DNA of 15,222 nt from Thermostichus sp. DRC_bins_24. GTDB lineage: Bacteria > Cyanobacteriota > Cyanobacteriia > Thermostichales > Thermostichaceae. This document shows positions 1 to 15,222 of this stretch, piece after piece. The notes under the pieces were generated by a model, which had not been told where the DNA came from, ran no database searches, and was given only the letters and a program-made list of their open reading frames with translations. A program made the position numbers and the translations under genes. Position 1 is the first letter of the stretch. Each line of letters begins with the position of its first letter. The stretch is from contig JAUQVK010000049.1 of NCBI GenBank assembly GCA_039794845.1, forward strand, positions 1 through 15,222, in the 5' to 3' direction.

Positions 1-515
1 ACCGACAGCCCAATCGATGGAAGGTTCTTGGCCCCGTTAAAAGCCCCATCCCCCTGCCAACCCCAATGCCCACACCCAAACCGCTTACCCCTCCGATAGA
101 CCGAATTGACCGCAACAACCTTCACATCCGCCCCCAAAGCCTTGTACTCAATGAACCCCCTCAACCGGTGGAACCCCCAACTGTTACTGCGCCTACGCTC
201 GTTTGGTTGCGAGGCTGTTGGTTGGTTCTTTCCCGAAGCCCCGTTAAATCTTCCAGAGCAATGCCGGCAGACGGAGACTTAGCAGTTTCAACAATGCGTC
301 TTGAAACAGTGTCATTCACCCCACTTTGGAATCGGCGCTCACGACCGGATAACCGTTGCAGCAATCCACCCACTCGGCGGCGTGTACTGCGTGTGCCCTT
401 ACTGGCTTTGTGCTGGAGCTTGACTCTTAAGTTGGCCAAGTGGTCACGCACCTGGGTTATGGCTTGCCCATTCCGGTGCCGTCCCTCCGAAGTGTGGGCA
501 ATATCGGAACGCCAA
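1..515 (-). pseudogene. tnpB: Degraded IS200/IS605-family TnpB (RNA-guided nuclease) remnant, C-terminal half only
   Basis: Minus strand reads RSDIAHTSEG...LQHKASKGTRSTRRR...LSGRERRFQ...IALEDLTGLRERTNQQPRNQ. After a frameshift near 200 it continues ERRRSNSWGFHRLRGFIEYKA...VVAVNSVY-RRGKRFGCGHWGWQGDGAFNGAKNL. These are typical TnpB RuvC-II/RuvC-III blocks. The N-terminal half is missing, the first half of the Zn finger (TSQTC..C) is deleted and the RuvC-III Asp is lost. Runs off the left edge. Confidence 0.88.
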
Positions 516-693: not shown

Positions 694-1893
694 TTAGCGG
701 ATATATTCCTTCAACACGCTGTTGCGATTGGGGTGACGCAGCTTGCGCAAAGCCTTAGCCTCGATCTGCCGGATGCGTTCGCGGGTGACATTAAAAATTT
801 GGCCGATCTCCTCCAGGGTTTTCATGCGGCCATCATCCAGGCCGTAGCGCAACTTCAACACATCTCGTTCGCGGGAGGTGAGGGTTTCCAAAACACTTTC
901 CAGGTCTTCTCGCAACAGCACCTTGGCCACCCGATCCTCCGGGGTTTCCCCATCCGATTCAATGAAGTCTCCCAGACGGGAATCTTCTTCCTTACCAATG
1001 GGAGTTTCTAGGGATATGGGCAACTGGGCCGACTTGGCGATAAACCGCAGCTTCTCGATGGTGATCTCCATGCGAGTGGCGATTTCTTCTTCGGTGGGTT
1101 TGCGGCCCAGCTCCTGGGAGAGTAGTTTGGTGACCTTCTTGATGCGAGAGATGGTCTCGTAGAGGTGGACAGGCAGACGAATGGTGCGGGATTGATCGGC
1201 GATGGCGCGGGTGATAGCCTGCCGGATCCACCAGGTGGCGTAGGTGGAAAACTTGTAGCCCTTCTCATGGTCGAATTTTTCTGCGGCTCGAATCAACCCC
1301 AGGGATCCCTCCTGAATCAGATCCTGAAAAGACAACCCTCGGTTCATGTATTTCTTGGCGATGGAAACCACCAAGCGTAGGTTGGACTGCACCATCTTTT
1401 CTTTGGCCCGCCGCCCCCGATGCAACCGCCGCCGAAACTCCGGCAACGCCATCTTCACTTCTTCGGCCCAGAGGGTATCCGGCACCTCTTCCGGATCCTC
1501 CCACAGGCCCATGCGGTCGAAAATCGCCTCGCGGATCCGTTCTAGCTCCAGCAGATCGGCAATTTTCCGGGCCAGCTCAATTTCTTCATCAGCCCGCAAC
1601 AGTCGAATGCGCCCTATCTCTTGCAAATAGACGCGGATTGAGTCATCGGTATAGTGCTTTTTCTTGCTGGCCGCTTTCCGCCTCGGGCGTCCCTTGACAC
1701 CCACAGCAGCCTCCCCATCCTCCTCCAGAGCCTCTTCCTCCTCCTCAAAAGCATCAGTGTCACTGGCATCCAGATCGAGCTCGATCGTATCCCCCCCATT
1801 GTCTTGATCCAGAGGGATAGAAGATCGACTTTCCAGAGTCGGTTCAAGAAGAGCCGCTTTACCAGACTTCACCAATTCCTTTGCTTGAGTCAT
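694..1893 (-). CDS. sigA: Group 1 (primary) RNA polymerase sigma-70 factor SigA/RpoD
   Basis: Acidic N-terminus; region 1.2 [16 protein letters not shown]; region 2 [27 protein letters not shown]...[30 protein letters not shown]; region 4 [30 protein letters not shown]. Cyanobacterial SigA type. Confidence 0.97.
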
Positions 1894-2530: not shown

Positions 2531-5500
2531 ATGACGCATCCCTTCCTGCGGCGGCTCCAGGAACATGTGATTGTCTTCGATGGGGCGATGGGATCCTCTC
2601 TGCAGGCCCAGAACCTGACGGCAGCAGATTTTGGGGGGCCGGAGCTAGAAGGCTGCAATGAGATGTTGGTGCTCACCAAGCCAGAGGCGGTGGAGAAGGT
2701 GCATCGCGGCTTTCTGGCGGTGGGGGCGGATGTGATCGAGACGGATACCTTCGGGGCCACCTCGATTGTCTTGGCGGAATATGGGATCTCGGAAAGGGCC
2801 TACGAACTGAACGTGGCGGCAGCTCGTTTGGCCAAGCAGGTGGCAGCAGAGTTTTCCACCCCCGATAAACCCCGCTTTGTGGCCGGATCCATCGGCCCCA
2901 CCACCAAATTACCCACCTTGGGGCACATCGGCTTTGACCAGATGCAGGCCAGCTTTGCCGAGCAGGTGCGAGGCTTGATGGATGGTGGCGCCGATCTGCT
3001 GATCATCGAGACCTGTCAGGATGTGCTGCAGACCAAAGCGGCCTTGGCCGCCGTGCAACAAGTCTTTGCAGAAAAGGGAGTGACAGAGAGGAATCGCCTG
3101 CCGGTGGTGGTGTCGCTCACCTTTGAGGTGCAGGGAACAATGCTGGTGGGCACCGAGATTGGAGCCGCCCTAACGATTTTGGAACCCTACCCGATCGATG
3201 TGCTGGGGCTGAACTGTGCCACCGGCCCCGACAAAATGACGGAACACATTCGCTATCTGTCCAAACATTCTCCTTTCCCCATTTCTTGCATCCCCAACGC
3301 CGGATTGCCGGAAAACATCGGTGGCCAAGCCCATTACAAACTCACCCCGGAGCAGTTGCGCTTTCATCTGCAGCATTTTGTTCAGGATCTGGGGGTGGCG
3401 GTGGTGGGGGGCTGTTGTGGCACTCGTCCAGATCACATTGCCGCTTTGGTGGAGGCGGTGCAGGGGCTACGGCCCAAACCCAGGATTATCGAACGGATCC
3501 CGGCGGCAGCCTCCATTTACAGCCCGCAGCCCTACCAGCAGGACAACTCCTTTTTGATCATTGGCGAACGGTTGAACGCCAGCGGCTCCAAAAAAATGCG
3601 GGATCTGCTTAACGCCGAAGACTGGGATGGCCTGGTGGCCCTGGCGCGGGAACAGGTGCGAGAGGGATCCCATCTGTTGGATGTGAACGTGGACTACGTG
3701 GGCCGCGACGGCGTGCGGGATATGCGCGAGTTGGTGTCGCGGTTGGTCACCCAGATCCAGATCCCCCTCATGCTCGACTCCACCGACTGGCAAAAAATGG
3801 AGGCGGGCCTCAAGGTGGCGGGGGGCAAGTGTTTGCTTAACTCCACCAACTACGAAGATGGGGAAGAACGGTTTTTGAAGGTGCTGGAACTGGCGAAACG
3901 CTACGGAGCCGGGGTGGTGGTGGGCACCATCGATGAGGAGGGCATGGCCCGTACTGCCGAGAAAAAGTTCCAGATTGCCGAGCGGGCGTACCATCAGGCC
4001 TTGGCCTTCGGGATCCCGCCCTACGAGATCTTTTTTGACCCCTTGGCGTTGCCCATTTCCACCGGCATTGAAGAAGACCGCGCCAACGGAGCCGCCACCA
4101 TCGAAGGGATCCGCCGCATCCACCAAGCCTTTCCCGAAGCCCACATCGTTTTGGGGGTCTCTAACGTCTCCTTTGGGTTATCCCCTGCCGCCCGCATGGT
4201 GTTGAACTCGGTGTTTTTGCACGAATGTCGGGAAGCGGGCATGGATGCTGCCATTGTCAGCGCCGCCAAGATCCTGCCCCTGAGCAAAATCCCCGTAGAT
4301 CAGCAGCAGGTGTGTCGGGATCTGATCTGGGATCGACGCCAGTTCAACGCTGAGGGCATTTGCACCTACGATCCTCTCGCCCGGCTGACGCAACAGTTTG
4401 AGGGCGTTTCTGGCAAAGATCTGCGCTCCGCGGGATCCCTGGCGGATTTGCCGCTGGAGGAACGGCTGCGACGGCACATCATCGATGGCGAACGGATCGG
4501 CCTAGAAGACACCTTGGCCGAGGCCCTCCAGAACTATCCCCCCCTGGAAATCATCAACACCTTCTTGCTGGATGGCATGAAGGAGGTGGGGGAACTGTTT
4601 GGATCCGGCAAGATGCAACTGCCCTTTGTCTTGCAGTCGGCAGAAACCATGAAAGCGGCGGTGAAATATCTGGAACCCTTCATGGAAAAGGTCGAAGGAG
4701 AGGGATCCAAAGGCACCTTTCTCATTGCCACCGTCAAGGGAGACGTCCACGATATCGGCAAAAACTTGGTGGATATCATCCTCACCAATAATGGCTACAA
4801 AGTCATCAATCTGGGTATCAAACAGCCGGTGGAAAACATTATCGAAGCCTATGAAAAATACCGGGCCGATTGCATTGCCATGAGCGGTCTGTTGGTGAAG
4901 TCCACCGCTTTTATGAAGGAAAACCTGGAGGTGTTTAACGAGCGGGGGATTACTGTCCCCGTCATTTTGGGAGGAGCGGCCCTCACCCGCCGCTTTGTGG
5001 AAGAAGACTGCCAAAACACCTACAAAGGCCGTGTCATTTATGGGCGAGATGCCTTTGCCGATTTGCATTTTATGGATCAGCTCATGCCCGCCAAAGCCGC
5101 CGGACAGTGGGATGATCACCTGGGCTTTTTGAATGGATCCCCGAATGGATCCCATAGCGACAGCCAAACCAATGGTCAGGTTGATTCGCAATCCTTGCAA
5201 TCTACAGAATCCGAAGCAGGGGTTCCCATCCAACCGGCCCCGGAAGTGACGGTTGGATCCACTCCCGAAGCCAGTTCAGCAGACCCTCAAGATACCCGCC
5301 GTTCCGAAGCCGTTACGCTGGAAACCGAGCGACCCCTTCCCCCCTTCTGGGGATCCAAAATCCTCAGGTCTGCCGAGATTCCCTGGTCGGAGGTGTTCTT
5401 TTACATCGACAAGCAAGCTTTGGTGGCTGGCCAATGGCAGATCCGCAAGCCCCGCGACCAATCCCCCGAAGAATTTGCCGAGTTCATGGCAACGCAGGTG

Positions 5501-6214
5501 GAGCCGGTGATCGAACGCTGGAAAGAACGGATCGTTGCTGAAGATATCCTGCACCCGGAGATCGTGTATGGCTATTTCCCGGCCCAAGCGGAAGGGAACA
5601 GCCTGATCCTTTTCGATCCGGCCAGTTTTTCGGAGCTATTCCAGTTGGATCCCGAGTCCACCACCTATTTTCAATTGCCCACCGCCGAACGGCCTCAACT
5701 CACCCCGCAAACCCAAGAGTTGGCTCGCTTCACCTTTCCCCGTCAAAAAACCGGCAACCGCTACTGTATTGCCGACTTTTTTGCGGATCGTTCCACCGGG
5801 TTGGTGGATGTGTTCCCCATGCAAGCGGTCACGGTCGGTGCCGCTGCCACCACCTATGCCCAGAACCTGTTTGCCAATAACCAATATACCGATTACCTCT
5901 ACTTCCACGGCATGGCGGTTACCCTAGCGGAAGCCTTGGCGGAATGGTGTCATGCCCGTATTCGGCGGGAGTTGGGATTTGCCCAGGAAGATAGCCCCGA
6001 TATCCGCAAGATTTTGCACCAAGGGTATCGTGGATCTCGTTATAGTTTTGGCTATCCCGCCTGTCCGCATATTCCCGACCAACGGGTTTTGTTGGATTTG
6101 CTCAAAGCCGAGCGCATTGGCCTTACCATGGACGAAAGCGATCAACTGGATCCCGAACAATCCACGACGGCCATCATCACCTACCACCCGGCTGCTCGGT
6201 ACTTTAGTGCGTGA
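2531..6214 (+). CDS. metH: Cobalamin-dependent methionine synthase
   Basis: Homocysteine-binding domain ([19 protein letters not shown]), pterin-binding domain ([13 protein letters not shown]), B12-binding motif [13 protein letters not shown]...SGLLVKS and activation domain ([10 protein letters not shown]). 1227 aa. Confidence 0.98.
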
Positions 6215-6227
6215 TCCCGTGTCCTGA

Positions 6228-6499
6228 ACGATCCCTTTTCCCATCGCCGACTTTGGCCCCGGACACATTCACATCGCGCAGCCAGGGGCGGGTCAGACTT
6301 TCGCCCAGGCCACCGGGCCCGTGATTTTTGTTTTGAATATGCTGCCGGATCCCGGTAATCGGTCGGGCAGATTTCAACTGGAAACCAGCCTAAGCTCAGA
6401 ACAAGTTGCCTCTTTCCTGGCCGGAGCCTACTACATCAACATCCATACCGAAGCCAACCTCCCGGTGAGTTGCGGGCCCAGGTGGTTTTCCCTACCTAA
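6228..6499 (+). pseudogene. CHRD-domain protein fragment (5'-truncated, frameshifted)
   Basis: Frame open from 6228: PIADFGPGHIHIAQPG...TGPVIFVL...LSSEQVASFLAGAYYINIHTEAN. Adding one C at about 6459 (aac cct ccc ggt) gives PPGELRAQVVFPT*, stop at 6497-6499. HIH...GP and Y.NIHT..NP.GE.R.Q are CHRD signatures. Confidence 0.75.
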
Positions 6500-6529
6500 A
6501 TCTTGCAGTTCAATCCTGTCGTCTTCACT

Positions 6530-6564
6530 GGGAATCCCCGTTTGTCGAGGGATCCCTATTTTTT
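6530..6564 (+). terminator. Putative intrinsic terminator built from GGGATCCC-like arms
   Basis: GGGAATCCCCG-TTTGT-CGAGGGATCCC followed by TATTTTTT, downstream of metH and the CHRD fragment. Confidence 0.5.
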
Positions 6565-6684
6565 GGCAGTGGGCGGATCGGATCCCGGAGAGATTGGCTA
6601 TTCTGTGAATGGTCCTGGCAAGTTCCCACATCCACGACAACCCCAACGTTGAAGGCAGAGTGTTAGAGCTAGGGAGAGGAACCG

Positions 6685-6822
6685 ATGGCTGACTACAACC
6701 GCGGCATCATGAAATTCAAGGGGGCAGATAGCCCAATCGTGATTTTGATCTCGGCAGTGATCGTGGCCGGTGTGGTCTCAGCCTTGATCTGGTGGGCTTT
6801 GCACTTCGCCTACGTCACTTGA
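6685..6822 (+). CDS. ndhQ: Photosynthetic complex I (NDH-1) small single-TM subunit NdhQ, 45 aa
   Basis: MADYNRGIMKFKGADSPIVILISAVIVAGVVSALIWWALHFAYVT*. NRGIMKF.GADSP plus a TM helix ending LIWWALH.AY matches cyanobacterial NdhQ as I recall it. RBS GGAGAGG at 6673-6679. Too short for the ORF track. Confidence 0.9.
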   Translation: MADYNRGIMKFKGADSPIVILISAVIVAGVVSALIWWALHFAYVT

Positions 6823-7967
6823 AATCTCAGCCAAGTTCTGCCCTAGAGCCTGAGCTTCCTCGGCTGGCTTGGAAGGAAGAGGTTTTGCGGCGCTTGCGGG
6901 AGTCTTTGCTGGGTTGGTACCGCGATCATGGGCGGGATCTGCCTTGGCGGCACACCCGGGATCCCTATGCCATTTGGGTTTCGGAGGTGATGTTGCAGCA
7001 GACCCAGGTGGCGACGGTGATCCCTTACTTTCAGCGTTGGATGCAGACATTGCCCGGGATCCCGGCTTTGGCAGCAGCCCCCCAACAGCAGGTGCTCAAG
7101 CTATGGGAGGGCTTGGGCTATTACCGACGGGCTTTGAACCTACACAAAGCGGCCCAGATTCTAATGCGGGAGCAGAATGGGCAGTTTCCCAAGCAGCTAG
7201 ACCGGGTTCTGGCCTTGCCGGGGATCGGGCGTACCACCGCCGGCGGCATCCTCAGCGCTGCCTTTGATGCACCTTTGCCGATTTTGGATGGCAATGTCAA
7301 GCGGGTGTTGGCTCGTCTGGTGGCTTTGCAGCAGCCCCCCGCCCAGTGTTTGCCCCTGCTGTGGGCCCTTTCGGAGCAAGTGTTGGATCCCGTGCAGCCG
7401 CGTGTCTTTAACCAAGCCCTGATGGATTTGGGCGCTACCGTATGCCGCCCCAAACAGCCTCGCTGTGGAGAATGTCCTTGGCAGACGGATTGCAGCGCCT
7501 ACAATCGAGGTCAACAGCAACAATTGCCTATGTCTGCGCCTCGTACCCCCCGTCCCCATAAACAAATCGCCGTTGCCGTCGTCCTGCGGGGGCAAGAAAT
7601 CCTCATCGATCGGCGGCTAGAGACCTCGATGCTGAGCGGGCTGTGGGAATTCCCCGGGGGAAAAATCGAGCCGGGAGAAACGGCTGCCGAGTGCGTGGTG
7701 CGGGAAGTGAAGGAAGAGATTGGCATTGACATCGAGGTGGTAACGGAGCTGGCCACCATCGAACACGCCTACACCCATTTCACCATTACCCTCATCGCCT
7801 TCATTTGCCGCTATTTGGGTGGAGAAGCCCAGGCACTGCAGTGTACCGAAGTGCGTTGGGTCAACCCGGCAGCGCTATCGGAGTTTCCCTTTCCGGGGGC
7901 CAATCAAAAGTTGTTTCCTTATTTACATGCTTGGTTGGCAAAACAGGGGGATCAATTGGAAACTTAA
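6819..7967 (+). CDS. mutY: A/G-specific adenine DNA glycosylase MutY with C-terminal MutT/Nudix domain
   Basis: WY..HGRDLPWR, SEVMLQQTQV, WEGLGYYRRA, HhH LPGIGRTTAG, LDGNVKRV, 4Fe-4S motif CRPKQPRCGECPWQTDC, and Nudix box GKIEPGETAAECVVREVKEEIGI. Start is uncertain: TTG at 6819 overlaps the ndhQ stop (TTGA), while the ORF track uses GTG 6792. Confidence 0.95.
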   Translation: MKSQPSSALEPELPRLAWKEEVLRRLRESLLGWYRDHGRDLPWRHTRDPYAIWVSEVMLQQTQVATVIPYFQRWMQTLPGIPALAAAPQQQVLKLWEGLGYYRRALNLHKAAQILMREQNGQFPKQLDRVLALPGIGRTTAGGILSAAFDAPLPILDGNVKRVLARLVALQQPPAQCLPLLWALSEQVLDPVQPRVFNQALMDLGATVCRPKQPRCGECPWQTDCSAYNRGQQQQLPMSAPRTPRPHKQIAVAVVLRGQEILIDRRLETSMLSGLWEFPGGKIEPGETAAECVVREVKEEIGIDIEVVTELATIEHAYTHFTITLIAFICRYLGGEAQALQCTEVRWVNPAALSEFPFPGANQKLFPYLHAWLAKQGDQLET

Positions 7968-8085: not shown

Positions 8086-10704
8086 TTGCGTGTGCCACTG
8101 CTGCGTTCTGCCCTTTTGCGCCGTTGGTTATCAGTAGCGCCGGATTGTCCAGCGCGAGAAGCCAGCCGCCGGATTGTCCAGAGGGATCCCGGGCTCCCGG
8201 CCATCCTCTGGGTTGAACAAGACAAACAACTGCTTGGGAGCTTGTCTGCACTGGATTTGTTGCGGGCACTGCAGGAAGGGATCCCCGCCCAAACCTCCAT
8301 CCGAGAACTTGGCTGGTCGGATCCTGTTTGTCTCAGTGCCCCTGCGAGTTCTGAGTCTCTAGAAACCCAAGAGCTAAGCTGTTTGTTGGATGCAGCCCGT
8401 CAGCTGGCCCAACGGCAGCTAGAAGCCTTGCCTGTTTTGGATGCCAAGGGTTATCCGAAAGGGCTCCTCACCCCCTTGAGCCTTTTACAAGCTCTAAAAC
8501 CCCTGAAGCTGTTCCAGCTCAACGCCGTGGGATCTTGGGTACAGCCTTTGCCATTGCAAGCGCCTGCAGATTTGCCCCTAGGTTCTTTGTTACCTTTGTT
8601 GGTACAACATCGGGCAGAATCCGTGTTGTTACGGGATCCGCAGCGCAATACCCCAATGGGCTGGATCCTTGCCGAGCAGATTTTACCGCTAGCCCACGCA
8701 AACCCCGACTGGCCTACCTTTCCTGCCCAAGCCGTCAGCCTGCCCTGTGGAGTGCCACTACACGCTTCAGACAGTTTGGCCGTAGCTTATGAGCGAATGC
8801 TGCAGGAGCCAAGTGCCAATCTTTTGGTGGTGAACAGCCGCGCCCAGGTGTTGGGAAGGTTATGCCCCCGTCATCTGTTGCAGTTGCTTCTGCCGGAGCA
8901 GCTTTTCTTGAACCTTCGCTCTGCTGAGGTAACCGAAGATTTGCCCAGAGAATTTCTACGGCGACCTGGAGATAGCGCTACGGCACGAAACTCAGATCCA
9001 GAAGTAGCGTCCTTAGATCGGTTTAAACGCCACTGGGCAGAAGAAGCCCTGCGCAAAAGCGAAAGCCTACGCCACGCCATTTTGGCCCACATGCCGGCGG
9101 TGATCTGGTTGGTGGATCGGGAACTGCGCTACACCTACTTCTCCGGGGCCGATCTGCAAAAATTTGGCATCGACCCACAGGCGGCCCTGGGCAGAACCCT
9201 GGCCGAGGTCTACGGGGAATCGGCAGAGGGCTGGCACACTCGCCATCATCGGTTGGCCCTAGAAGGGATCCCTTGCACCTACGAAGCCCAGGTGGCGGGG
9301 GTGACCTACGAGTGTCGGGTAGATTGGTTGCCCAACCACGAAGGGGTGATCGGCATTGCCGTCGATATCAGCGAGCGCAAAGAGGCAGAAGCCCGTCTGG
9401 AACGCTTGGCCCATTACGATCCCCTCACACAACTGCCCAACCGCACCCTCTTTCAGCGCCGCTTGCAGGAGTTCTTACAGCAGCCGCATCCCTTGGCGGT
9501 GTTGTTTTTGGATCTGGATGATTTCAAAACCATCAACGATAGCCTGGGCCACAGTGCCGGGGATCGGGTTTTGCAGATGATTGCCCAGCGGTTGCATGAG
9601 CAAGTACCCGCCGGGGATCTGATGGCCCGCATGGGGGGGGATGAGTTCACGTTTATTCTCACCCATCTCGACGACCGCAAGCGGGCTCTCACCTTGGCCC
9701 AGTCTTTGCTGGATACCTTCAAGCAGCCCATCCTATTGGACAATCATGAGCTGTACGTGAGCGGCAGCATTGGCATCAGCTTCTACCCGCAAGATGCCAC
9801 CGATCTGGATAGCCTGGTGCAGTATGCCGATGCCGCCATGTATCGGGCCAAAGCTCAGTCCCGCAACAGCTATCAGGTCCATCATTCCGACCCCCAGCCA
9901 GAAGCCCTGGGTCGCCTCACGTTAGAAAGTCGTCTACGCCGCGCCATTGAACAGGATCAGCTGCAGGTGCTCTACCAGCCCCAGTGGGATGTCAATGGGC
10001 AAAAAATTGTCGGGGCGGAAGCCCTGGTGCGCTGGCATCTCTCGGAACAGGAGTTTATCTCGCCCGAACAGTTCATTCCCTTGGCAGAAGAAACCGGCTT
10101 AATTTTGCCCCTCGGAGAATGGGTCTTGCGGCGGGCCTGTACTCAAGCCCAGAGCTGGCGCAAGCAAGGTTGGTCGCAGATCAAAGTGGCAGTGAATTTA
10201 TCGATGCGCCAGTTTCAGCAACAGGATATGGTGGCGCGGCTGAAGGCCATCTTGGCGGAAACCCAGTTGCCCGCTGCGGCCTTGGAGCTGGAAATTACCG
10301 AAACCACCGCCGCCAGCAATTTTGAACAAACCCTCGAGATCCTGCACAGGCTCTATCAACTGGGGGTGAAGTTGGCCATCGACGATTTTGGTACGGGCTA
10401 CTCTTCCATCAACTACCTAAAGCGGTTCCCCTTGCACAAGCTCAAGATTGATCAGTCCTTCATCCGCGATTTGAACACGACCATGGTACCCCTGAGCCGC
10501 TACGAAAAAAGCGATATCGCCGTGGTGGCGGCCATCATCGACTTGGGCCACAGCCTCAATTTGCGGGTGGCTGCCGAAGGGGTGGAAACCCTCTCCCAGT
10601 TGGATATTTTGCAAAGCCTCGGTTGTGACGAGGTGCAAGGGTTTCTCTTGGGTCGCCCCCTCACAGCAGCGGATTTTTTGCAGCAATTGCGTGAACACTC
10701 ATAA
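8086..10704 (+). CDS. CBS-PAS-GGDEF-EAL diguanylate cyclase/phosphodiesterase
   Basis: Four degenerate CBS-like repeats (e.g. ALPVLDAKGYPKGLLT, LLVVNSRAQVLGRL); PAS/PAC (ILAHMPAVIWLVDRELRY...GIAVDISERK); HYDPLTQLPNR; FLDLDDFKTINDSLGH; ARMGGDEF; GAEALVRW; LELEITE; DDFGTGYSS; KIDQSF; AEGVET; QGF. Start codon uncertain. Confidence 0.95.
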   Translation: MRVPLLRSALLRRWLSVAPDCPAREASRRIVQRDPGLPAILWVEQDKQLLGSLSALDLLRALQEGIPAQTSIRELGWSDPVCLSAPASSESLETQELSCLLDAARQLAQRQLEALPVLDAKGYPKGLLTPLSLLQALKPLKLFQLNAVGSWVQPLPLQAPADLPLGSLLPLLVQHRAESVLLRDPQRNTPMGWILAEQILPLAHANPDWPTFPAQAVSLPCGVPLHASDSLAVAYERMLQEPSANLLVVNSRAQVLGRLCPRHLLQLLLPEQLFLNLRSAEVTEDLPREFLRRPGDSATARNSDPEVASLDRFKRHWAEEALRKSESLRHAILAHMPAVIWLVDRELRYTYFSGADLQKFGIDPQAALGRTLAEVYGESAEGWHTRHHRLALEGIPCTYEAQVAGVTYECRVDWLPNHEGVIGIAVDISERKEAEARLERLAHYDPLTQLPNRTLFQRRLQEFLQQPHPLAVLFLDLDDFKTINDSLGHSAGDRVLQMIAQRLHEQVPAGDLMARMGGDEFTFILTHLDDRKRALTLAQSLLDTFKQPILLDNHELYVSGSIGISFYPQDATDLDSLVQYADAAMYRAKAQSRNSYQVHHSDPQPEALGRLTLESRLRRAIEQDQLQVLYQPQWDVNGQKIVGAEALVRWHLSEQEFISPEQFIPLAEETGLILPLGEWVLRRACTQAQSWRKQGWSQIKVAVNLSMRQFQQQDMVARLKAILAETQLPAAALELEITETTAASNFEQTLEILHRLYQLGVKLAIDDFGTGYSSINYLKRFPLHKLKIDQSFIRDLNTTMVPLSRYEKSDIAVVAAIIDLGHSLNLRVAAEGVETLSQLDILQSLGCDEVQGFLLGRPLTAADFLQQLREHS

Positions 10705-10791
10705 TCCGCCAAATGGCCTAGGTCGTTCTAGCCCTGTTCCCCCAAGACATCCGATACGATAAGAGGTGTTCTGCTTCCGTGAGATGCGGAT

Positions 10792-11067
10792 ATGCTCATC
10801 ACTCTGGAAAAGGCTGGGGAGATTCTTGCCAAAGGCTCCCATGCTGCCATTACCACCACCGATGGCAAGATCGCCTTGGTACCCAAGGGCAAAGAGACCT
10901 TGAAGCTGACTTCCACCGAAGCTGTCAACATGATGTTTTACGTTGTCCGCTCTGCTGAGCCGGCAGAAACCGTCATGACGCAACTGGAAGAGGCAATCGC
11001 CAAAGCCCAAGCTCCCGATCCGGCGGAAGAACGGGCCAGAAGATATCGAGAAATTCGCGGCACCTAG
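10792..11067 (+). CDS. Small hypothetical protein (91 aa)
   Basis: ATG-started ORF with protein-like composition, co-oriented with neighbours and followed immediately by a strong hairpin. No family recognised. Confidence 0.6.
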   Translation: MLITLEKAGEILAKGSHAAITTTDGKIALVPKGKETLKLTSTEAVNMMFYVVRSAEPAETVMTQLEEAIAKAQAPDPAEERARRYREIRGT

Positions 11068-11098
11068 GGGATCCGGTATTGGTGGTAGGCGGATCCCC
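11067..11098. terminator. GC-rich hairpin after the 91-aa ORF (possible terminator or 3' stabiliser)
   Basis: GGGGATCCG (11067-11075) / CGGATCCCC (11090-11098), perfect 9-bp stem with no U-tract. Confidence 0.4.
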
Positions 11099-11106
11099 CA
11101 GGGTAA

Positions 11107-11225
11107 GTGATATACTCCCGACACCCATACCGATGCACAGAGTGTGGGCTTCCCAGTGACCCTTGCCATTGCATTGGGCATACCCCGAGCCTTAAGGACG
11201 GGATGACCCACCGCCCTGTTCTTAC
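11107..11225 (-). mobile_element. Putative non-autonomous IS200/IS605 mini-element (left-end-like plus right-end-like hairpins, no ORF)
   Basis: Minus strand: AAGAACAGGGCGGTGGGTCATCCCGTCCTTAAGGCTCGGGG (left-end-like hairpin), then GGGAAGCCCACACTCTGTGCATCGGTATGGGTGTCGGGAGTATATCAC (right-end-like, ending TCAC at 11107). Confidence 0.5.
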
Positions 11226-11269
11226 AGCCCTTTACGCCCAAGGCACGCCGGTGCGTTCGCCCATGGCGG

Positions 11270-11368
11270 CCCATAGGGCACCGCTCGTCATGTGTAACAA
11301 CCGTGGAAGTTGAGATCGACCCTCTGGAGGGAGCAGGAAGCACAAGCCCCGTCCTATGGGTGGATGAC
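11270..11368 (+). mobile_element. Degenerate IS200/IS605 3' end / right end
   Basis: ...GCAGGAAGCACAAGCCCCGTCCTATGGGTGGATGAC resembles the AAGCCCCGTCC...GGGGTRGTTGAC right-end motif. It ends exactly where the Rpn-like reading frame begins. Left boundary uncertain. Confidence 0.45.
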
Positions 11369-11700
11369 GCTTTAACCAGGAGCTGATGCGGCAGCTGCTG
11401 CGGGAGGATGTGATGCGGGAGTCGGTGACCTATCAGGCATTGGTGGCCGAAAGTGAGCAACGAGGGCTCATCCGAGGGATCCAAGAGGGGATCCAACAGG
11501 GTCTCACCCAAGGGATCCAACAGGGGGAGGCAGAACTAACCCTACGTCAACTCAAGCAAAAAGTGGGATCCCTGCCCGATGCATTGGAGGCTCAGATTCG
11601 CTCGTTGCCGGTGGAACGTTTGGAAGCATTGGGCCTAGCTTTGCTAGAGTTTGAGACCTTGGCTGACCTCACTACCTGGCTGGAGGGAGTCACCCCTTAA
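11368..11700 (+). pseudogene. C-terminal part of an Rpn-family (PD-(D/E)XK 'putative transposase') protein with DUF4351-like domain; possibly still expressed from an internal start
   Basis: RFNQELMRQLLREDVMRESVTYQ...GIQEGIQQG...EAELTLRQLKQKVGSLP...IRSLPVERLEALGLALLEFETLADLTTWL is the typical cyanobacterial Rpn/DUF4351 C-terminus. In-frame TGA at 11365-11367 and no nuclease domain upstream. GGAGG at 11403-11407 precedes ATG 11413. Confidence 0.85.
11476..11526 (+). repeat. 12-bp coding tandem repeat (GIQE/GIQQ/GLTQ/GIQQ)
   Basis: gggatccaagag gggatccaacag ggtctcacccaa gggatccaacag ggg. Confidence 0.8.
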
Positions 11701-12022: not shown

Positions 12023-14338
12023 ATGAAATGGAGCATCGGCTGGAAACGGGGAATAGCTCTGCTGCTGGTGTTGATACGCCTGGCTTTGCCCCTATTGATT
12101 TACGGCTGTAGTGGAGGAGGAAGCACCGCTTCTTCCAGCTTGCCCCCGCCCAGACCCGAGCCCACTCCCGCGGCTACTCCCCCTGCACCGACTTCTCCAC
12201 CCGGGATCCCTGCCCCAACTCCATCATCCCCTCCCCTTAATCCTGAACTGCCGACCTCACCCCCTCCGGTTCTCCCCTCCGGGCCAGGGGTCATTCTGGA
12301 TGCCACCACCCTAGATGGGATCCCGCGCACCCTGGGAGAGAGCCTTTTCCTACAGGCTGCAGTCACAGGAGTGGAATGGTGGGCCAGCGAGTGTGATGGT
12401 TTCTGCAACCCCCCCCAACTTTTGGGTCGAGGAGCCAACGTCACCTACCGTGCCGAACACGTGGGCATGGTCACCCTGACGGCCCGCTTGGGAGAGCAAC
12501 AAGCCAGAGTCAGCTTCACCGTCAGCCCTGCCGACATTGCAGTGGCCCCCAGAGTCAAGGTGCTCCCCGAGGGAGTAGCAGTGTCAGGGGATCCCCAACA
12601 GGGTTCATTTCAACTGACCGATAGCCCGATTTTGCCCACCCTGTATGTCGGGGATGTGGTGATTGGGTCAAGACTGTCACCCTTACAAATTACGGCTATT
12701 CAACCCCAGGGAGAGAATTGGCTCCTACAAGGGATCCCGGCCTTACCCAAACAACTAGTTCGTCGGGGTAGTGTGCGCTTTGGGAATGTGCCGCTACAAC
12801 TGACGGCGCAGGTAGAACCCACAACGCTGGTAGAGGAACCTATTGTCGCCCGCCGGTTACAGCCTTTGCCCCGTTGGGAGAACTTCCAAACCGCTGGGGA
12901 TCCCACCCCAATCGGGATGAAGGTAGTGGCTTCTGGATCCCTGGATTGGCAAAGCACTCTGAGTGGCAGTCTCAGTTTTGATGCAGATGTCGGGGATGGC
13001 CTCAGCGGCTTTGTTCTCAACCAGCAAGCACAAGTTCAAGTCGAGCTTCAGCTCCAAGCAGAGGGGTTCTCCCGTTGGCAAGAGGATGCCCAAGGACAAT
13101 TTCTTTTGCCCCCTCAAGCGCGGGCTTTGGTTGTGCAGGTGGGGCCAGTCCCAGTTTCTATTGAGATTTTCATCAGTGAGGCCTTGGGCTATCAGGCCAA
13201 TCTCTGGCTCAATGGCAGAGCGGGGTTGACCTACGGCTTGGTGGGAGGAAGCTTAGAAGAATCCATCCGTTACGACCCTACCCAAAGTCAGCCCTGGCAG
13301 AGACAGGCCCAGATGCAAGCAGGGCAGTGGCAGGGATCTGTTGCTGCAGATATCTCCGGGGTGATGAGTGTGTTGGTGCACCCGCAAGTGGAGGTCAGCC
13401 TGTTTGGGGCCTCCAACGCGGGCGGAATGGTCATTGCCGGGGTTTTAGCCGGGGGATCCCGTGATGTCAGGGTAGAGCAGTCGCTGTCTGGCAGCCAGTT
13501 GTTGGGGCGGGTGCGGGGGCACAACAGCAGTGTCCTGGTGGGGCAACTGGGGTATGTGGATGGGGGAGGTGGGTTGACAGAGTTAGACCCTGCCAATCTG
13601 AGTCCAAGAGGGTTGGAGACCCGGTTTGAGGTGAGTGGACGCTTTCGAGAGACGGAGGCAACACTGGTTGTTCTTGGAGTATCGGTCACTGCTGCGAAGC
13701 TACCTCAAATTCTTGCTTTGATAGCGGCTCTGCTACCGCAGGTGGCGGTAGTGGCGGTGCCGGTAGCGGTGGGGTTCTTGGTACTGGCCATTTTGGATGC
13801 CGGGGTAGCCGATACTCCTGGTCTCCAAACCGGGGATCCGATTCCGCCGGATTTTGCTCTCAGACTGGAGCAAGTGCAACAGGAGATTGGCAAACTAGTT
13901 GGCGAGGAGGATGAGGAGCCACGGCCTGCTCCTTCAGGGGGCTCTGGTAATTGCCCGCCTACCCCTACACCAACTGAGCAATGCGATGGAGATGGGCCTC
14001 TAGAAGGTGAGACAGACTACCAAGTCAACAATCCGAATGATCCTTCAGACACTATTACCGACATTGATAGAATTGAAGGAGGTATTCTGTGGGAGGTGAA
14101 AACCGCTATATTTGCAATCGATATTGAAAGATGGGTTCGAGAAAAAATCCGAAATAAGTTTTACAGATATCTCAGAGCTAGACAATACCTAAGCTGCTAT
14201 GAGAACGCGCCTATTGGATTTGAGTTTCAAGGGAGCACAGGAATTGATCCAATATTTAAGTCGATGATAGAAGCCGAAGTGCAAAGGCTACGAATCGAAA
14301 ATCCAGGAGTTAATATTCTGTTGAGGTTCTTGCCATAA
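12023..14338 (+). CDS. Predicted lipoprotein with C-terminal PD-(D/E)XK (restriction-endonuclease-fold) domain; candidate polymorphic toxin
   Basis: Signal peptide MKWSIGWKRGIALLLVLIRLALPLLIYG|C (Cys29 at 12107); Ser/Gly/Pro-rich tether; Ig/PKD-like and beta-rich domains; hydrophobic helices at about 13660-13800; Pro/acidic linker; tip with TDIDRIEGGILWEVK (D...ExK) at 14057-14101 in AT-richer DNA. Confidence 0.8.
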   Translation: MKWSIGWKRGIALLLVLIRLALPLLIYGCSGGGSTASSSLPPPRPEPTPAATPPAPTSPPGIPAPTPSSPPLNPELPTSPPPVLPSGPGVILDATTLDGIPRTLGESLFLQAAVTGVEWWASECDGFCNPPQLLGRGANVTYRAEHVGMVTLTARLGEQQARVSFTVSPADIAVAPRVKVLPEGVAVSGDPQQGSFQLTDSPILPTLYVGDVVIGSRLSPLQITAIQPQGENWLLQGIPALPKQLVRRGSVRFGNVPLQLTAQVEPTTLVEEPIVARRLQPLPRWENFQTAGDPTPIGMKVVASGSLDWQSTLSGSLSFDADVGDGLSGFVLNQQAQVQVELQLQAEGFSRWQEDAQGQFLLPPQARALVVQVGPVPVSIEIFISEALGYQANLWLNGRAGLTYGLVGGSLEESIRYDPTQSQPWQRQAQMQAGQWQGSVAADISGVMSVLVHPQVEVSLFGASNAGGMVIAGVLAGGSRDVRVEQSLSGSQLLGRVRGHNSSVLVGQLGYVDGGGGLTELDPANLSPRGLETRFEVSGRFRETEATLVVLGVSVTAAKLPQILALIAALLPQVAVVAVPVAVGFLVLAILDAGVADTPGLQTGDPIPPDFALRLEQVQQEIGKLVGEEDEEPRPAPSGGSGNCPPTPTPTEQCDGDGPLEGETDYQVNNPNDPSDTITDIDRIEGGILWEVKTAIFAIDIERWVREKIRNKFYRYLRARQYLSCYENAPIGFEFQGSTGIDPIFKSMIEAEVQRLRIENPGVNILLRFLP

Positions 14339-14362
14339 TAATTGTAGTGGAGAGATTATGAG

Positions 14363-14725
14363 ATGAGTATTTATTTTAAGGACGAGTCAGGAGAAATATT
14401 ATGGAGCCCGAGTAATAATGTAGGATTTCTATTTATTGACCAGGTGAGAATCATAGAAAAGCTGCTTAGCCTTGACAGTGGGATACATTTTAGCGAAGGA
14501 GATACTCTTATGATCGATAAATCTCAGTATCAACTTTTTGTTAATTATCTCGTCACATATATATGCAGATCAAATAATGAACCCTTAAAATTACTTTTGT
14601 CAGGCTGTACATCAGTTATTATTTCTATTGCCATGAAGCTAAAGATCGATTCCGAGTTGCATCGTGAAACTATCTCAGACTTGATCGCTAAGGCTGCTGA
14701 AATAAAGGATAAACTTCCATGCTAG
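14363..14725 (+). CDS. Candidate cognate immunity protein, DUF6086-like (120 aa)
   Basis: Starts 24 bp after the toxin stop, with GGAG at 14349-14352; AT-rich. MS.YF....E.LW.PSN....LF..QV...E..L.L.SGI.....D...ID pattern recalled from DUF6086-family proteins found next to toxin genes. Confidence 0.7.
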   Translation: MSIYFKDESGEILWSPSNNVGFLFIDQVRIIEKLLSLDSGIHFSEGDTLMIDKSQYQLFVNYLVTYICRSNNEPLKLLLSGCTSVIISIAMKLKIDSELHRETISDLIAKAAEIKDKLPC

Positions 14726-14848
14726 GATACTTCTTAAAAAAGTTGAAAATATGTTTGCAGGAACAGAGAATGGAGGTAGCTTGATAAAGCTGTTATTCTT
14801 TATGCGCCAAATTATAATATCCCAGCTGGATCAGCAGGAGTGCTAGCA

Positions 14849-15222
14849 ATGGCTGTTGTCGACAGATTAAACATTAAATGCAATAAGTTTACAATACCAG
14901 AAGATGTGGTCGAAGCGGTAAAAGCTAGTCCATTATTTGCACACAAAGAAATTGAGACAGGCCCCGAGGTGTACGCTCCTGGATTTGAAAAGATGAAAGG
15001 CTGTTACCTTTTTTTTAAAGATAATGAGATAGATTATTCAATCGAAGAGGCACGTGATTTCTTTCAGAAAACAATGTTCGATTGCTATGGTTTCATTCAT
15101 TCTATTGAAATTAGCTGCCGGAAATCAACTGGGCCTTATTGGATATCATTCTTGAAGTTTGTTAACTTTCTGTTGTCAGAAGATGATGGAGATGCCGTCT
15201 TACTGGCCAATGGAGAAGATAC
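14849..15222 (+). CDS. Second candidate immunity protein, SitI3-like; partial, runs off the window end
   Basis: AGGAG RBS at 14836-14840, ATG at 14849, and no stop to the window end: MAVVDRLNIKCNKFTIPEDVVEAVKASPLFAHKEIETGPEVYAPGFEKMKGCYLFFKDNEIDYSIEEARDFFQKTMFDCYGFIHSIEISCRKSTGPYWISFLKFVNFLLSEDDGDAVLLANGED. LL....GDAVLL.NGE recalls SitI3-family immunity proteins. Not in the ORF track because it lacks a stop. Confidence 0.7.
   Translation, partial: MAVVDRLNIKCNKFTIPEDVVEAVKASPLFAHKEIETGPEVYAPGFEKMKGCYLFFKDNEIDYSIEEARDFFQKTMFDCYGFIHSIEISCRKSTGPYWISFLKFVNFLLSEDDGDAVLLANGED

Follow-up and report, generated by a model that had tools for sequence, protein, structure and literature searches.

The subject here is the end of a 15,222-nucleotide stretch of DNA (the window) from the cyanobacterium Thermostichus sp. 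DRC_bins_24, positions 1 to 15,222 of contig JAUQVK010000049.1 in GenBank assembly GCA_039794845.1. Thermostichus-like cyanobacteria are thermophiles. Three co-oriented genes occupy this end: P0001, encoding a long putative exported protein (the carrier) with a short C-terminal domain (the tip); and two small genes behind it, P0002 and P0003. Together, they probably form a polymorphic toxin-immunity system of a Thermostichus-like cyanobacterium, built from a lipid-anchored carrier, a nuclease tip, and an immunity protein of the DUF6086 family. The locus comprises the following genes and features, with hydropathy on the Kyte-Doolittle (KD) scale, isoelectric point as pI, and AF2 denoting AlphaFold2.

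12023-14338, plus strand: carrier-toxin gene P0001, 771 residues, from the open reading frame and its translation
12023-12109, plus strand: putative signal sequence, residues 1-28, ending LIYG before Cys29 (a non-canonical lipobox), from direct reading
12110-12307, plus strand: Gly/Ser stretch, then Pro-rich tether, residues 30-95, with 35% Pro and pI 4.1
12308-13657, plus strand: beta-rich body, residues 96-545, from an AF2 model and allele comparison
13658-13822, plus strand: hydrophobic segment, residues 546-600, with KD above 1.6 over residues 548-599
13823-13984, plus strand: acidic, Pro-rich linker, residues 601-654, containing EEDEEP and a C644-PPTPTPTEQ-C654 loop; tips are exchanged at this junction
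13985-14338, plus strand: toxin tip, residues 655-771 (117 residues; stop codon 14336-14338), a profile family, GC 0.41
14060-14101, plus strand: motif D680-I-D682 ... L689-W-E691-V-K693, from the tip alignment
14363-14725, plus strand: DUF6086 gene P0002, 120 residues, Pfam PF19564
14840-15222, plus strand: third AT-rich open reading frame, P0003, at least 127 residues, running off the window end, GC 0.38

The initial annotation, made from the DNA letters, proposed a polymorphic toxin locus, in which a conserved carrier bears a swappable tip and immunity-type genes lie next to it. Comparison with relatives of the carrier strongly supports this proposal. A search of 5.8 billion proteins identified at least two full-length relatives (P0004 and P0005), to which are added a fragment (P0006) and a full-length member of the P0005 cluster (P0170). 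Four carrier loci (L001 to L004) were found in GTDB species-representative genomes, all of them cyanobacterial metagenome-assembled genomes (MAGs). The count of relatives is a lower bound, because a region-restricted search with the body, capped in its number of candidates, missed P0004. Seven carriers were compared, and they bear five distinct tips, four of them unrelated to that of the window. The tips of P0004/L001, L002, P0005/P0170, and L003 show no BLASTP similarity to the window tip or to each other (best E 0.33), and the window tip profile, compared by hhalign with P0004 and P0005, reached probabilities below 1%. The P0005 tip has a weak likeness to Tox-REase-2 (E 3.9e-4, not reaching the Pfam cut-off). 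Only P0006 bears the tip of the window, about 88-89% identical, and it does so on a different body.

Conservation of the carrier is concentrated at its beginning. P0170 matches the window protein at 86% over the first 30 residues and at 53-86% over residues 1-240, then at 3-46%. L001 and L002 adjoin rlmN-like genes that are 95% identical, and their carriers match at 84-94% over residues 1-150 and at 22-40% afterwards. Within the body, alleles agree over the first ~150 residues and diverge strongly over the remainder. Because carriers in near-identical backgrounds are conserved only over their first 150-240 residues and fall to 20-45% in mid-body, the middle of the body is a variable module in itself, like the receptor-binding regions of other contact-dependent toxins. 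The downstream reading frames of the window, L001, L002, and L003 likewise have no mutual similarity. To judge from these sequences, the carrier is polymorphic, with swappable tips and changing downstream genes. (The initial annotation would have been abandoned had all homologues shared an invariant C-terminus without variable downstream genes; it survives, because the homologues differ in both.)

Base composition delimits the exchanged part. Residues 1-654 of P0001 are encoded at GC 0.586 (0.58 at third codon positions, GC3), the tip at 0.407 (GC3 0.356), and the break at residues ~650-660 is exactly the conserved junction. Along the window, which is chromosomal DNA, GC stays at 0.55-0.60 up to about position 14000, then at 0.30-0.42 to the end; P0002 and P0003 stand at 0.353 and 0.383, versus 0.55-0.59 for the other genes. 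The two small co-oriented AT-rich genes reported behind the toxin are therefore confirmed. In L001, L002, and L003 the same drop spans the tip and the small reading frames, with recovery beyond. Composition and allele comparison together show that the tip and its downstream genes arrived as one foreign, AT-rich cassette at a conserved Cys/Pro-rich junction. DNA alignments of the junctions were too diverged to fix the crossover point.

Some of these loci contain additional genes. L003 encodes a paralogous carrier-like protein (5536-7203) in which a cellulose-binding CBM_2 domain (E 7.5e-25) replaces the lipobox and tether. This gene is AT-rich from about residue 350, and similarity is lost after about residue 430; an overlapping open reading frame in another frame (7182-7889) may be its frameshifted continuation. 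L004 (4-429) is a 141-residue carrier remnant (signal, LLKSC, tether, and first Ig-like domain) in the same MAG as L001, so one genome carries more than one such locus, and copies decay. Directly after the cassette, both L001 (7840-8964, continuing at 10129-11289) and L003 (8655-11069) encode a lipoprotein-like protein with a GDPH motif and a von Willebrand type D (VWD) domain (Pfam E 3.8e-9 and 1.7e-9, respectively), that of L003 also with LRR_4. The L001 gene is apparently split by a transposase-like reading frame (8941-10008, minus strand), and the window ends ahead of the equivalent position. The VWD protein may be an accessory part of the toxin system.

The tip has a wide distribution of its own. 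An exhaustive phmmer (HMMER) pass over 1.84 billion representative proteins found it in 171 proteins at E<=1e-3 and in 123 at E<=1e-10, with lengths from 61 to 2625 residues. Local re-scoring of 152 of these proteins yielded 133 matches that reach the domain end, and the tip ends no more than 10 residues from the protein C-terminus in 130 of these 133 complete matches. Two bearers, P0150 and P0101, lack the final third of the tip and run on into an apparent next gene. Carriers were classified by a Pfam scan of 105 of the 149 listed matches, the 44 shortest being left out. Among these 105 are proteins with pretoxin HINT (PT-HINT) domains (11); WXG100-type or type VII secretion system (T7SS) signal domains (8); RHS repeats (4, one also with SpvB/TcdB-type domains); the core of extracellular contractile injection systems (eCIS; 2); umbrella-toxin-like ALF repeats (2); and Ntox1 (2). 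The other side of this census is that 74 of the 105 contain no Pfam family, and that no Pfam family covers the tip itself.

Named bearers belong mostly to the Actinomycetota (Glycomyces, Streptosporangiaceae, Spirillospora, Actinomadura, Mycolicibacterium/Mycobacterium, and Kitasatospora), and an RHS protein of Nibricoccus (Verrucomicrobiota) also carries the tip. A tree was built from 109 tips: 111 of the 152 matches spanned positions <=12 to >=105, and two cluster duplicates were removed. Carrier types are interspersed in it, and the window tip and that of P0006 form a pair (100/100) with a long stem in an unresolved polytomy. Neither the window tip nor an actinobacterial one (P0015) had a tblastn match among plasmids. 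By its distribution, the tip is a genuine C-terminal domain of polymorphic toxins.

What the tip does is suggested by its conserved residues. Alignment of 36 tips (that of the window and 35 matches chosen for shortness) reveals four invariant residues, D682, L689, E691, and K693, and a further set conserved in at least 90%: I678, T679, D680, I681, A695, W704, K712, A719, R720, A729, and P761. The D...ExK signature first noticed in the short C-terminal domain is thereby borne out as D680/D682...E691-V-K693. A confident AF2 model built from this alignment (predicted local distance difference test, pLDDT, 96.4; predicted template-modelling score, pTM, 0.88) has the order strand-strand-strand-helix-strand-helix-strand, with no N-terminal helix. 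In it, one hairpin (strands 19-31 and 34-39) carries D680/D682 on one arm and E691/K693 on the other, an arrangement that agrees with a PD-(D/E)xK site. In their account of the restriction-endonuclease-fold toxins, Zhang et al. (2012, PMC3482391) describe all clades as retaining D-[EQ]xK. A Pfam scan of all 36 tips at E<=10 gave no shared family and matched no Tox-REase-type model. The likeliest activity, which we favor with reserve, would be that of a metal-dependent nuclease of the PD-(D/E)xK type.

P0002 starts 24 nucleotides behind the toxin stop codon, with GGAGAG ahead of its ATG, and has no signal sequence by eye. It matches DUF6086 over residues 1-119 of 120 (E 1.5e-22; 80.4 bits versus a gathering cut-off of 31.9). 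Its one close relative, P0155, is 79% identical and also a DUF6086 protein; among the compared downstream reading frames, P0002 pairs only with this one. P0155 and P0006, the latter bearing the window's tip, each lie on one 1302-nucleotide contig from the same source, and would fit a single contig that carries both tip and DUF6086. Position, shared composition, and one independent occurrence point to P0002 as the probable cognate immunity protein, which would block the tip in the cytoplasm of the producer.

A comparable arrangement is listed for umbrella toxins. The umbC product of Salinispora arenicola DSM 45545 ends with a transmembrane (TM) segment, HINT.2, and Tox-REase-16 (residues 1303-1416 of 1417), and a 120-residue DUF6086 gene follows directly, with a 4-nucleotide overlap (Zhao et al. 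2024, PMC11062931, Supplementary file 3). According to the supplement, 17 UmbC proteins bear Tox-REase-16, listed as a new toxin with the restriction-endonuclease fold (PMC11062931, Supplementary Table 2); it is 109-133 residues long and always terminal (PMC11062931, Supplementary file 3). Two proteins with the window's tip family, P0075 and P0104, have the layout of these umbC products: ALF, PT-HINT, and tip. A literature search found no mention of DUF6086 in the main text of papers.

P0003 offers weaker leads. NCBIfam SitI3 is matched at E 0.041 (14 bits versus a cut-off of 31), and leads from the Atlas are nameless clusters of ~155 residues (0.89) and a contact-dependent inhibition (CDI) immunity cluster (0.86). 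P0003 may be a second or orphan immunity gene.

The carrier itself begins with MKWSIGWKRGIALLLVLIRLALPLLIYG, then Cys29. The basic residues of this stretch and its hydrophobic core (KD window 7-33) show a Sec-type N-terminus. Directly behind the hydrophobic core, a Cys preceded by Gly or Ser at position -1 is present in all five N-termini seen (window, L001, L002, L004, and P0170). Lipidation of Cys29 probably holds P0001 on the cell envelope. The tether is as described initially. So is the beta-rich character of the body, with 22 strands and three helices in an AF2 model of residues 90-640, albeit a model built from five sequences only and of low confidence (mean pLDDT 54; 71-87 only for about residues 100-259, and below 50 from about residue 443 onward). 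Foldseek matched this model only with generic tandem Ig/Fn3 ectodomains, at template-modelling (TM) scores of 0.08-0.12. The sole match at E<=0.001, IL-12 p40 (TM score 0.12), is read merely as "beta-sandwich-like", and the Atlas leads Big_2 and PKD (0.79-0.82) fall below the level of evidence.

Family libraries have little to say about the carrier. Whole P0001 has no Pfam family at E<=1, in keeping with the earlier statement that RHS, PAAR, VgrG, haemagglutinin, and Hint are absent, and the carrier has no match in NCBIfam or among PDB sequences. (Used as queries against PDB sequences, whole P0001, the tip and its profile, the body profile, and both downstream proteins had no match below E 0.09.) The suggestion that the carrier class may be undescribed stands: by these comparisons, the family appears to be new, and its members turned up only in a few cyanobacterial MAGs.

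Between body and tip lies the hydrophobic segment, which the initial annotation also identified. The 52 residues from 548 to 599 reach KD 2.6 and leave room for two helices. A hydrophobic segment sits at the equivalent place in all five carriers that extend this far (window, P0004, L002, P0005, and P0006), and spans 19 to 52 residues, corresponding to one or two helices; in P0005, P0006, and L002 it fits one helix only. L003 has no such segment. In the linker that follows, alignment finds E629, P633, P646, P648, P650, and C654 conserved, and Cys-bracketed, Pro-rich loops occur in the window, P0004, L002, and P0006. A short P/G-LEG motif stands ahead of the tip in the window (13985-14005), P0006, and most proteins that bear the tip on another carrier. 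It also marks the junction of L002, although the L002 tip is unrelated, and may be the relic of an earlier tip or a mark of processing or recombination.

These features suggest a model for the toxin-immunity system. P0001 would be exported through the Sec pathway by its N-terminal signal and anchored at the envelope through lipidated Cys29, where the Pro-rich tether and the beta-rich, partly Ig-like body would present the toxin. The toxin might reach its target by contact between cells, in vesicles, or by being released. Speculatively, the hydrophobic segment together with the acidic linker and its Cys-bracketed loop might free the tip and carry it across the target membrane. Once in the cytoplasm of a neighbor, the tip would act as a metal-dependent nuclease via D682, E691, and K693. 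Cytoplasmic P0002 would neutralize the tip in the producer, possibly with P0003 as additional or orphan immunity, and neighbors lacking immunity would be killed or arrested.

A bolder version of this model, which seems quite unlikely, gives the mat-forming Thermostichales a lipid-anchored toxin exchange of their own, an independent analogue of myxobacterial outer-membrane exchange. In that version, the conserved N-terminal 150-240 residues would dock on the envelope, the hypervariable middle of the body would bind a receptor on kin or non-kin, and the hydrophobic hairpin with the disulfide-bracketed acidic loop would release the nuclease tip and translocate it into the cytoplasm of the neighbor with no secretion machine of its own, much like the T-domain and nicked loop of an AB-toxin.

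Several observations weigh against a lipid-anchored nuclease toxin with DUF6086 immunity. A family scan of the remaining genes in the 15-kb window, listed below, found no secretion or delivery gene, as the initial annotation had stated, and nothing there speaks for delivery by SitA-like outer-membrane exchange or by vesicles. For the tip model, Foldseek returned nothing at E<=0.001 from PDB and BFVD (best PDB E 0.1). The nuclease domains of Hef, XPF, and Mus81 do appear, at ranks 4, 8, 16, and 17 with TM scores of 0.32-0.37, in a list that mixes GTPases, AAA ATPases, and barstar among the nuclease matches. Moreover, the family as a whole is acidic, its median pI being 4.95 (range 4.1-8.4, n=36), which is unusual for a nucleic-acid binder. 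Because the fold search gave no match and the family is acidic, nuclease activity is held to be likely, not demonstrated; of the nuclease fold claimed earlier, the invariant D..ExK residues and the order of strands and helices speak in its favor, but the fold search does not. The tip may be the Tox-REase-16 of Zhao et al. (2024), an identification that goes by layout, because the supplements give accessions and boundaries, no sequences.

The assignment of immunity encounters resistance as well. In the supplement, two other Tox-REase-16 umbC loci list no downstream gene (PMC11062931). None of five Streptomyces plasmids has a tip-like sequence within 4 kb of its DUF6086 match, and on all four annotated ones (L005-L008) the DUF6086 genes are flanked by transposases (ISL3 family and others); these genes may be orphan immunity genes or insertion-sequence passengers. 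The read-through in P0150 leads into Imm52 (E 1.8e-15) and that in P0101 into an unassigned 160-residue tail, neither of them DUF6086, so the tip family is paired with several immunity families. Finally, the envelope anchor and the topology are both disputable. P0001 fails strict lipobox patterns (PS51257-like and DOLOP-like) through R19 and Tyr at -2, and its homologue P0004 fails them too, with Lys at -2; a lipobox at Cys29 is therefore plausible but non-canonical. Of the lipoprotein anchor in the initial annotation, the conserved Cys after the hydrophobic core remains, but the canonical pattern does not, and the anchor is to that extent unsupported. A 52-residue segment of KD 2.6 would normally stop Sec transfer and anchor P0001 at the inner membrane, at odds with an outer-membrane lipoprotein, and a segment of one helix would leave the tip in the cytoplasm of the producer. 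With one helix in some relatives and two in others, it is uncertain on which side of the membrane the tip comes to lie.

This stop-transfer difficulty keeps two rivals alive. One retains the toxin-immunity logic and dispenses with the lipoprotein: an ordinary cleaved signal or an uncleaved anchor would make P0001 an inner-membrane or released, bacteriocin-like toxin, its tip freed by proteolysis of the linker and then diffusing or traveling in vesicles. The failed lipobox patterns, with Tyr or Lys at -2, suit this form, as does the strong segment 548-599 acting as a stop-transfer anchor; and Sec-only ("T2SS", type II secretion system) polymorphic toxins with lineage-specific N-terminal domains are among those described in PMC3482391. 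It is nonetheless unlikely, in that the Cys after the core, the Gly or Ser at -1, and the disordered Gly/Ser/Pro stretch are kept in five of five N-termini, as lipidation predicts. The other rival turns the effector on its owner: in an intracellular, membrane-anchored defense or toxin-antitoxin module, the outward body would be a sensor, joined by one TM helix to a tip that stays in the producer's cytoplasm under P0002 control and kills the producer, for example upon phage attack. The one-helix segments of P0005, P0006, and L002 would indeed put the tip in the cytoplasm, the same place as signal-less P0002. But PADLOC gave no meaningful match for P0001, P0002, or P0003 (PHROGs likewise gave none); the tip is otherwise borne by export-type carriers (RHS, PT-HINT, WXG100/T7SS, eCIS, and ALF); and interbacterial toxins are typified by just this exchange of tip plus downstream gene between backgrounds that are nearly identical. 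These points make self-directed action very unlikely. Still more improbable, to the point of being hardly credible, is a variable surface adhesin or envelope protein with a non-toxic C-terminal domain and unrelated small foreign genes behind it. Resemblance of the body to Ig-like surface proteins only, and a fold search that proves no enzyme, would be expected of such a protein, but the invariant D, E, and K residues would not, nor would the C-terminal position of the tip on 130 of 133 proteins, RHS and pretoxin-HINT carriers included.

Upstream of the toxin locus, the window encodes the following genes.

694-1893, minus strand: sigma-70 factor, a housekeeping or signaling neighbor
2531-6214: MetH, a housekeeping or signaling neighbor
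6792-7967: MutY-like glycosylase, an upstream gene
8086-10704: CBS-PAS-GGDEF-EAL protein, a housekeeping or signaling neighbor
10699-11520, minus strand: open reading frame without a family, 273 residues
11386-11700: small DUF4351 open reading frame, 104 residues, with a complete DUF4351 domain (E 2e-21)

MetH falls into a 90%-identity cluster with proteins from MAGs or strains named Thermostichus sp. (order Thermostichales) and Synechococcus sp. Nb3U1, which identifies the source as a Thermostichus-like cyanobacterium. The DUF4351 reading frame overlaps the 3' part of the minus-strand reading frame listed before it, and one of them is probably spurious. The reading frames at 10779-11700 were also considered as a decayed Rpn-like gene; this was rejected, because Pfam supports only DUF4351 in the last of them. 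Scans of the toxin locus for Rfam families, tRNAs, repeats, promoters, and terminators gave nothing informative.

Polymorphic toxins decide which strains can coexist, and hot-spring cyanobacterial mats are a classic model for coexisting close ecotypes. For such mats, the locus is a candidate, open to testing, for antagonism between strains or for kin discrimination; a literature search found no report of this kind of toxin system there. How a toxin exported by Sec gets across a target membrane may become apparent from the hydrophobic segment and Cys-bracketed junction of the carrier. For DUF6086, the locus supplies a first functional lead and context, as a candidate immunity protein of a D..ExK toxin family. 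Moreover, the tip links actinobacterial umbrella, T7SS, and RHS toxins to a cyanobacterial carrier, and so points to wide travel of the cassette.

Comparison with known systems begins with the tip. Tox-REase-1 to -10 similarly place D...ExK on neighboring strands and lie C-terminally on RHS, HINT, and WXG carriers. The window family differs in that none of the 36 tips matches a Pfam model of that group at E<=10, and in that the tip model has no N-terminal helix. Tox-REase-16 of the UmbC proteins comes closer in layout: a tip of ~110-117 residues at the extreme C-terminus; DUF6086 directly after one such protein; and, in some UmbC rows of the supplement, a TM segment before the tip, as in the window carrier (PMC11062931). 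UmbC is nonetheless a wholly different carrier and particle, and its tip is likened to the window's by layout, not by sequence.

Among carriers, SitA of the myxobacteria has the closest layout: a lipobox, a disordered stretch, an escort domain of ~375 residues, and a modular C-terminal nuclease, as outlined in PMC8546572, with an immunity gene in the operon and frequent residence on mobile DNA (PMC5562445, PMC8546572). Delivery of SitA requires TraAB outer-membrane exchange, and the six SitA families are reported only from Myxococcales with traAB, the account in PMC5562445 stating that no homologues were found outside. A family scan of the genes in the 15-kb window detected no traAB, and the carrier has no Pfam or NCBIfam match that would relate it to SitA, with the proviso that these libraries may not hold every SitA escort model. 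Nor do the SitA descriptions in these sources include a hydrophobic segment such as that of the window carrier. The window carrier is not a member of the SitA family.

The locus belongs instead with the Sec-exported polymorphic toxins that have lineage-specific N-terminal domains. Examples given by Zhang et al. (2012, PMC3482391) are MafB-N, Microscilla-N, and the lipobox-preceded APD1 and APD2 of Amoebophilus. Features shared with this class, as set out there, are the export signal (preceding APD1/2, one with a lipobox); an N-terminal region that is conserved and confined to a lineage; C-terminal toxins of extreme variability; downstream immunity genes; and cassette recombination. In contrast to MafB-N, Microscilla-N, and APD as characterized in that survey, the window carrier has a hydrophobic segment and a Cys-bracketed linker ahead of the tip; its body matches none of them in Pfam and is diverged in the middle; and its host is a cyanobacterium. 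The kind of system is thus already known, and the carrier is new.

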